A DNA stretch of 64,000 nucleotides, taken from positions 132,898 through 196,897 of the IMG/VR virus record IMGVR_UViG_3300016657_000126. The stretch is one strand, 5' to 3'. The stretch comes from a virus. The notes under the pieces were generated by a model. It was not told the origin of the DNA. It saw only the letters and a program-made list of their open reading frames with translations, and ran no database searches. The translations under genes and the position numbers were made by a program. Positions 6,659 to 6,775 of this stretch are shown here, one piece after another; positions within the stretch are counted from its first letter, which is position 1, and each line of letters begins with the position of its first letter.

Positions 6659-6691
6659 CGCAGGAATTCTCCCGTGACTGAAAAGTGGGTC

Positions 6692-6726
6692 AAAAACAAA
6701 GAGCCGACGGATTGCTCCGTCGGCTC
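6692..6726 (-). terminator. Intrinsic terminator
   Basis: Minus strand GAGCCGACGGA-GCAA-TCCGTCGGCTC (11-bp perfect stem) then TTTGTTTTT. Confidence 0.8.
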
Positions 6727-6775
6727 CCCACTTAAACTCTTGGCGGCCCCTTCAAGACCGCCTGGAATTTACCGA
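6692..6775 (-). ncRNA. Candidate small RNA between sbcC and the RAMP gene
   Basis: GGCGGT/GCCGCC stem-loop, single-stranded linker and terminator; segments complementary to 1624-1652. 5' end not defined. Confidence 0.4.

Follow-up and report, generated by a model that had tools for sequence, protein, structure and literature searches.

The 157-nt gap IG1, between an sbcC gene and a RAMP-like gene of a phage, carries the single reversed copy of an upstream cassette that recurs in this genome at a constrained position. The leader 5 kb away that had been taken for the target of a small RNA is a sense copy of it. We give about an even chance to an operon junction that carries an inverted copy of a cis motif acting at the DNA level. 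An earlier note had proposed that the gap encodes a split-pairing guide or antisense RNA, perhaps loaded on the RAMP protein, that controls replication initiation.

Inverted matches and structures in the junction

The window, i.e. the whole stretch of DNA that was analysed, is the final 64 kb of a 196,897-bp virus record (GC ~62%). All genes near the finding are on the minus strand:

9463-10632, minus: SbcD-like gene
6816-9533, minus: SbcC-like ATPase gene, last of the sbcD-sbcC operon, upstream of the junction (Pfam AAA_23 and SMC_N, PHROG 77)
6659-6815: IG1, the 157-nt gap between sbcC and the 158-aa gene
6182-6658, minus: 158-aa RAMP-fold gene, first in the RAMP-helicase-DnaB operon
3921-6239, minus: SF2 helicase gene with an intein-like insert
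3223-3930, minus: 235-aa gene
1730-3226, minus: DnaB-like helicase gene
1621-1729: IG2, the 109-nt gap ahead of the 579-aa gene
1-1620, minus: 579-aa winged-helix (HTH_36-like) gene, start codon at 1620, running off the window start

Past the window start there follow, in transcription order, a primase, a family-A polymerase, a third gap, a 711-aa gene and a UvsX-like recombinase.

The five inverted matches claimed between IG1 and the leader of the 579-aa gene are all exact reverse complements by base-by-base reading:

6727-6737 against 1637-1647: 11 nt
6748-6756 against 1629-1637: 9 nt
6764-6769 against 1624-1629: 6 nt
6723-6726 against 1649-1652: 4 nt
6662-6671 against 1621-1630: 10 nt

The first four blocks are indeed collinear and tile the leader: a gapped alignment joins 1624-1652 on the plus strand to 6723-6769 on the minus strand through AATTC, CTTGAAGG and GTTTAAGTGGG, and then GAGC. 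In IG1 the joined blocks are interrupted by two GC-rich inserts, which pair with each other. The fifth match (6662-6671) weighs little since six of its ten bases are the palindrome GAATTC, with two more at either end. The word TTTAAGTGGG has three copies in 197 kb, all three intergenic. By generic local alignment the IG1/IG2 pair ranks 7th among 6480 intergenic pairs. It is outside the ten best pairs by a block-chaining score, which is uninformative because GC-rich chance chains score equally high. Taken at the sequence level, the complementarity appears to go moderately beyond chance.

The minus strand of IG1 folds into a compact RNA structure with three hairpins (-59 kcal/mol, z -5.8), in agreement with the structured RNA proposed earlier. 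The plus strand folds at -40.9 kcal/mol, i.e. 18 kcal/mol weaker, and hence the RNA-level structure belongs to the gene-sense strand. The elements of the gap are:

6779-6801, minus: hairpin H1 with a run of five U behind it, weakly terminator-like and just past the sbcC stop codon (terminator scan, fold)
6732-6809, minus: 25-codon ORF across H1 and H2, with its stop codon within the seed (translation)
6733-6771, minus: hairpin H2, with a 7-bp outer stem between the 5' block and part of the seed, an inner 9-bp stem and a GAA loop (folds, alignment)
6727-6741, minus: linker or "seed" AAGAGUUUAAGUGGG, which holds the 11-nt match, can pair with both the 579-aa and the 711-aa leader by sequence, and would be free only in an RNA starting at H2
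6692-6729, minus only: hairpin H3 (11-14 bp, GCAA loop) plus a U-rich tract (folds)
6666-6693, minus: sigma-70-like promoter site TTGACC-16-GAGAAT (promoter scan, 9/12 consensus positions)

H2 contains the 9-nt and 6-nt matched blocks, and its GC-rich arms are both of the "insertions" relative to the leader. The terminator called earlier is well founded, H3 being a strong, textbook intrinsic terminator on the minus strand. In the minus-strand sense AAGTGGG and CCCACTT stand on either side of H3 (6697-6737 and 6683-6689), so that cis pairing between the seed and the RAMP-like gene's leader could occur in a read-through transcript.

The TTGACC-16-GAGAAT site overlaps the sense CCCACTT copy of the gap, and its -10 box ends 7 nt upstream of the ATG of the 158-aa gene. 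The word TTGAC is kept 35-39 nt upstream of the RAMP gene ATG in two relatives, A and B, which supports the promoter call for this gene. The gap hence has an intrinsic terminator after the upstream gene and then -35/-10 boxes before the downstream gene. A consensus promoter scan of IG1 gave no convincing promoter for the candidate RNA, its sole consensus match being the TTGACC-16-GAGAAT site that serves the 158-aa gene. By eye we found only weak promoter candidates for the RNA, i.e. TTGACG-17/18-CCACTT and a TAAATT box.

The CCCACTT cassette at operon starts

The 11-mer of the longest match belongs to the motif CCCACTT, which has 24 copies on both strands of 197 kb, five of them intergenic. 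Four of these five are sense-oriented and lie 26, 27, 30 and 31 nt ahead of the ATGs of minus-strand genes, i.e. the 280-aa (genome 94692-95534), 711-aa, 579-aa and 158-aa genes. From the counts we estimate that ~0.09 such placements are expected, against the four observed. Those with an assignable function are the first genes of replication or recombination operons. The remaining intergenic copy is that of IG1, and it is the only inverted one.

The third genomic copy of TTTAAGTGGG precedes the ATG of the 711-aa gene by 26 nt and is oriented as in the 579-aa leader. The two leaders also share CCCACTTAAA and TTCTCAT at equal distances from the ATG, with TTCTCAT adjoining it. Ahead of the 579-aa gene the cassette is laid out as follows:

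1621-1652, minus: upstream cassette of the 579-aa gene, i.e. CCCACTTAAAC, CCTTCAAG and GGAATT, then the ATG at 1620; the claimed target
1649-1667, minus: 7-bp hairpin directly before the cassette (fold)

The same order of hairpin and motif is seen at 6697-6737 when read on the plus strand. Hairpins are found upstream of all four sense copies, ending right at the motif in two of the four, and the inverted IG1 copy also comes directly after a hairpin on the plus strand.

We read IG1 as the junction of two minus-strand operons, with sbcD-sbcC upstream and the RAMP-like gene, the SF2 helicase and the DnaB-like helicase downstream. The H3 terminator would end the sbcCD transcripts, and the promoter-like TTGACC-16-GAGAAT site would drive the RAMP-like gene from so near its ATG that the mRNA would be nearly leaderless. 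Between the hairpins there is an inverted copy of the cassette, split by the hairpin arms. The cassette itself may be a DNA-level cis element, either a promoter component or the operator site of a phage regulator, for which the winged-helix 579-aa protein and the RpoD-like sigma factor of the phage are the putative candidates. The leader complementarity 5 kb away would then be a by-product of one copy in the opposite orientation. A shared DNA-level element, found in sense as CCCACTT before four ATGs, explains the match without any RNA pairing. Any transcript that ends at the H3 terminator is necessarily antisense to the two leaders, and the junction reading needs no use of this.

The cis-element reading is favoured by the fixed-position motif family, the unconserved RNA, the sequestered seed, the missing promoter and the marginal energy statistics. 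The gene layout, the minus-strand terminator hairpins, the promoter-like site, the features shared by the two leaders and the presence of another repeated cassette in the genome also speak for it. Against it stand three observations. The inverted copy has no downstream gene on the plus strand; the three exact blocks are kept at 26/26 nt and the inserts between them form a minus-strand hairpin; and the two best predicted RNA targets are exactly both leaders with the long form of the motif. RNA pairing tolerates exact blocks split by a self-contained hairpin better than a protein-binding site does. Reading of the aligned CCCACTT copies gave no common -35/-10 partner, a positional count gave no -10 signal, and the spacing from CCACTT to AATT varies among the copies, and therefore the promoter or operator nature of the motif is only putative.

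We considered CCCACTT as a -10 box, a -35 box, a sigma-32-like element, a MotA-box-like element or part of a leaderless promoter, and rejected each as no consistent partner element was found. A 161-aa plus-strand ORF downstream of the inverted motif was also dismissed, being a shadow frame of sbcC (codon-position GC 0.81, 0.40 and 0.63). The genome has another repeated terminator-plus-start cassette, a 37-nt direct repeat with 31/37 identical positions at genome 118489-118560 and 181523-181864. It consists of a terminator hairpin and a TCATATATCTCTGG box that ends at the ATG, its second copy being at 48626-48967 of the window, and is another duplicated operon-start cassette.

RNA pairing and conservation in relatives

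RNAcofold was used in place of IntaRNA to pair the 91-nt candidate with 230 start regions. The leader of the 579-aa gene ranks 1/230 with a ddG of -14.7 kcal/mol, against a background of -4.9 ± 2.4, and the leader of the 711-aa gene ranks 2/230 with -12.0. None of 5060 dinucleotide-shuffled start regions reached -14.7. Across the shuffled sets of 230, the best ddG lies between -10.5 and -14.7, and since these best-of-set values reach -14.7, the genome-wide p is ~0.05. When the 21-nt linker was run against the complete genome on both strands, the 579-aa leader was again the best non-self site (-25.9), with unrelated sites next at -25.6 and -24.9. Hence the pairing tops the genome yet is no outlier. 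Its lead over the background is small.

The optimal cofold keeps the inner hairpin, and only the flanks pair with the leader. The 9-nt block, taken earlier for a pairing hairpin loop, is an exact match but goes unused in this optimum. In RNAs starting at 6773-6815 the AAUUC 5' block pairs with GAGUU of the seed, and the terminator stem is closed by three G of the seed, whose mean unpaired probability is ~0.25. An RNA starting at ~6762, at the inner hairpin, leaves the linker AAGAGUUUAAGU largely free (unpaired probability ~0.4 to 0.99), and this short form has the same two leaders as its top two targets, with ddG of -15.7 and -15.8.

The leader blocks had also been said to cover a ribosome-binding site, AAGGA. 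This is doubtful, as we found no Shine-Dalgarno enrichment in the upstream regions of the phage. The genome-wide enriched upstream words are A-rich (AAAACT, TAAACC) and CACCCAC, and several genes have TATA-like boxes 5-8 nt ahead of the ATG, which suggests leaderless mRNAs or very short leaders. The candidate RNA has no Rfam match at the gathering threshold, and a permissive search gave only terminator-driven sub-threshold matches with E up to 5.

The nearest phages show 43-54% protein identity and keep the gene order. Their gaps between sbcC and the RAMP gene are:

Relative A (L004): 93-129 nt
Relative B (L013): 47 nt
L019: 35 nt
L020: 45 nt
L009: 12 nt

Neither gap sequence, IG1 or IG2, is conserved in A or B. 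The gap RNA of A gives a ddG of only -3.8 with its own initiator-like leader. That of B gives -15.4, matched by 28/600 shuffles; we dropped this value as support because those shuffles and many sliding windows equal or beat it. Co-conservation of the RNA and its target sites, which the earlier note had named as a check, is thus contradicted: A and B keep neither, and most relatives have no room for an RNA gene beside the RAMP gene. Closer relatives were sought by single-protein locus scans in IMG/VR, by exact 18-22-mers in IMG/VR and JGI metagenomes and by megablast against GenBank phages, and none was found; a word-indexed search gave no homologue of the 579-aa protein either. In relative B the gap ahead of the initiator-like gene (L013:11600-11700) has a perfect 16-bp inverted repeat around ~52 nt and then a T-rich run before the start codon, and this element could be attenuator-like or small-RNA-like.

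Competing explanations, the RAMP-like protein and known systems

The 158-aa protein has no Pfam or PHROG match. Its AlphaFold2 model has a pLDDT of 95, and the best 50 Foldseek matches in PDB are all Cas7-family subunits (E 2e-6, TM 0.6-0.67). The matched chains are of the Cas7/Csm3/Cmr4 type and come from type VII, III-A, III-B, III-D and III-E effectors, and a search of the Atlas agrees. The earlier RAMP call for this gene is hence borne out by a predicted Cas7/Csm3-like fold. The family has at least 158 homologous clusters, mostly viral, and the protein has a conserved glycine-rich C-terminal loop. In the relatives examined, sbcC and the SF2 helicase gene flank the RAMP-like gene, and neither cas genes nor a CRISPR array lie close by. 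IG1 (6659-6815) itself has no tandem repeat, CRISPR array or repeat-like handle, and no match to a CRISPR repeat family. The "initiator-like" label of the 579-aa gene fits its HTH_36-type winged-helix replication protein features and the primase that follows; it comes from language-model features only and is a lead.

A true antisense sRNA is plausible, though we hold it less likely than the junction reading. It would be a minus-strand RNA of ~65-90 nt that ends at the strong terminator and regulates leaders by base pairing, and it would be transcribed from a weak promoter that overlaps H1 or be processed from the 3' end of the sbcCD mRNA. Its AAGAGUUUAAGUGGG would pair with the leaders of the 579-aa operon (initiator-like protein, primase, polymerase) and of the 711-aa operon (then the UvsX-like protein), lowering their translation or stability and so coupling them to sbcCD transcription. 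The build is typical, i.e. a hairpin at the 5' end, a linker rich in A/U and a U-tailed terminator, and the minus strand folds into a far stronger structure than the plus strand. With its 5' end at H2 the RNA would leave the linker largely unpaired, both leaders come out on top among 230 start regions in the long and the short form, no shuffled target out of 5060 reached -14.7, and the inserts form a self-contained hairpin that a three-way-junction duplex would tolerate. However, the consensus scan gave no good promoter, the seed is sequestered in the full-length fold, there is no Rfam family match, and the RNA is unconserved in relatives (A -3.8; B -15.4, with 28/600 shuffles as good). The best of 230 shuffles also reach -14.7, and the whole-genome scan yields near-equal unrelated sites. 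The site is 17-27 nt upstream of the ATG in a phage without Shine-Dalgarno signals, so a ribosome block is not assured, and the complementarity is equally expected from an inverted copy of a DNA motif. A neutral relic or chance, i.e. a functionless remnant of a short duplication or of template switching, or a match arising by coincidence among many pairs, is unlikely in our view. It would fit the rank of the pair, which is only in the top 0.1-0.4% of the 6480 intergenic pairs by generic alignment statistics, and the lack of the inverted copy in relatives. It fits less well with a 10-mer whose three copies in 197 kb are all intergenic, with three collinear exact blocks whose flanks are sharply bounded and unrelated, and with a leader motif that is itself positionally constrained.

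We regard as very improbable a split guide RNA, an inverted form of the leader, that would be loaded on the stand-alone Cas7-like RAMP protein for CRISPR-independent silencing of the initiator-primase-polymerase and recombinase operons. In its favour, the neighbouring protein has the Cas7/Csm3-type fold and the conserved glycine-rich C-terminal loop, and the RNA-like segment is directly upstream of its gene on the same strand. But a strong terminator is between the segment and the gene, there are no repeats, CRISPR array or repeat-like handle, and the gaps of the relatives are 12-47 nt, or 93-129 nt without similar sequence, from which it follows that the RAMP protein needs no RNA gene here. 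The loading of the RNA on the RAMP protein, as suggested in the earlier note, is therefore not upheld: no link joins the two, with neither handle nor array, an intervening terminator and an unconserved locus. The least probable of the explanations is a coding role, in which the minus-strand frame from 6809 to 6732 would yield a hydrophobic peptide of 25 residues, translationally coupled to sbcC. The 25-codon ORF has a hydrophobic N-terminus and an ATG 7 nt after the sbcC stop codon, an open frame such as coupling would use. Yet the frame crosses two stable hairpins, and inspection of the sequence of relative A, the only relative with a comparable gap, gave no equivalent; the ORF is probably not a gene.

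The c4 RNA of phages P1 and P7 (immI; Rfam C4) pairs in a split manner at two sites. The candidate would be like it in being a phage-encoded, structured RNA of ~70-80 nt on the strand of its target, with short separated pairing blocks directed at the start of a downstream gene. Antisense RNAs of this general type have precedents in phages, e.g. P1 c4, which blocks icd-ant expression (PMC8198154). Unlike c4, the candidate has no Rfam match even at a permissive threshold, and its putative target is 5 kb off in another operon, that of c4 being in the same transcript. CpxQ and SroC are bacterial sRNAs that derive from 3'UTRs and share the terminator of the mRNA. The candidate resembles them in its place at the 3' end of an operon, in sharing the intrinsic terminator and in a seed just upstream of the terminator hairpin that would be single-stranded in the short form, but differs in being unconserved in relatives.

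The T4 middle promoters with their MotA box are repeated promoter cassettes at the starts of phage operons. CCCACTT is similar in that a short motif is at a fixed distance before several operon heads of the early/middle type (replication), each after a terminator hairpin. It differs in that one CCCACTT copy is inverted without a downstream gene and that no partner promoter element was found. With a crRNA on a Cas7 backbone (type III, type VII) the locus shares the Cas7 fold of the neighbouring protein; unlike those systems it has no repeat-spacer units, no cas partner genes and no conserved adjacent RNA in relatives.

If the element works at the DNA level, the CCCACTT cassette would be a usable marker of operon starts in the replication module and ordinary in kind. 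If the RNA is functional, the phage would have made an antisense regulator by reverse-copying the leader of its target, tying the replication and recombination operons to sbcCD transcription. The RAMP-guide reading, if true, would mean a CRISPR-independent, RNA-guided regulator within a phage replication module. The stand-alone Cas7-like family beside sbcCD is the more surprising item, and the evidence does not tie this family to the candidate RNA.

The phage is large and uncultured and may infect Verrucomicrobia. One of its genes (genome 74701-76101, L016:1009-2409, minus strand, outside the window) specifies an RpoD-like sigma factor of 466 aa that has regions 2 and 4. The best full-length relatives of this sigma factor come from Verrucomicrobia and Planctomycetes, a hint that the host belongs to the PVC group. 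The SF2 helicase (3921-6239, minus) has weak Hint/homing-endonuclease-associated matches at residues 187-410, consistent with an intein, and the same faint Pfam match is seen in relatives. The family-A DNA polymerase (1577 aa, genome 126603-131336, L010:6603-11336, minus) has an N-terminal uracil-DNA-glycosylase-like domain and is far longer than the orthologues of 1101-1109 aa in the relatives, which fits an insert, e.g. an intein.
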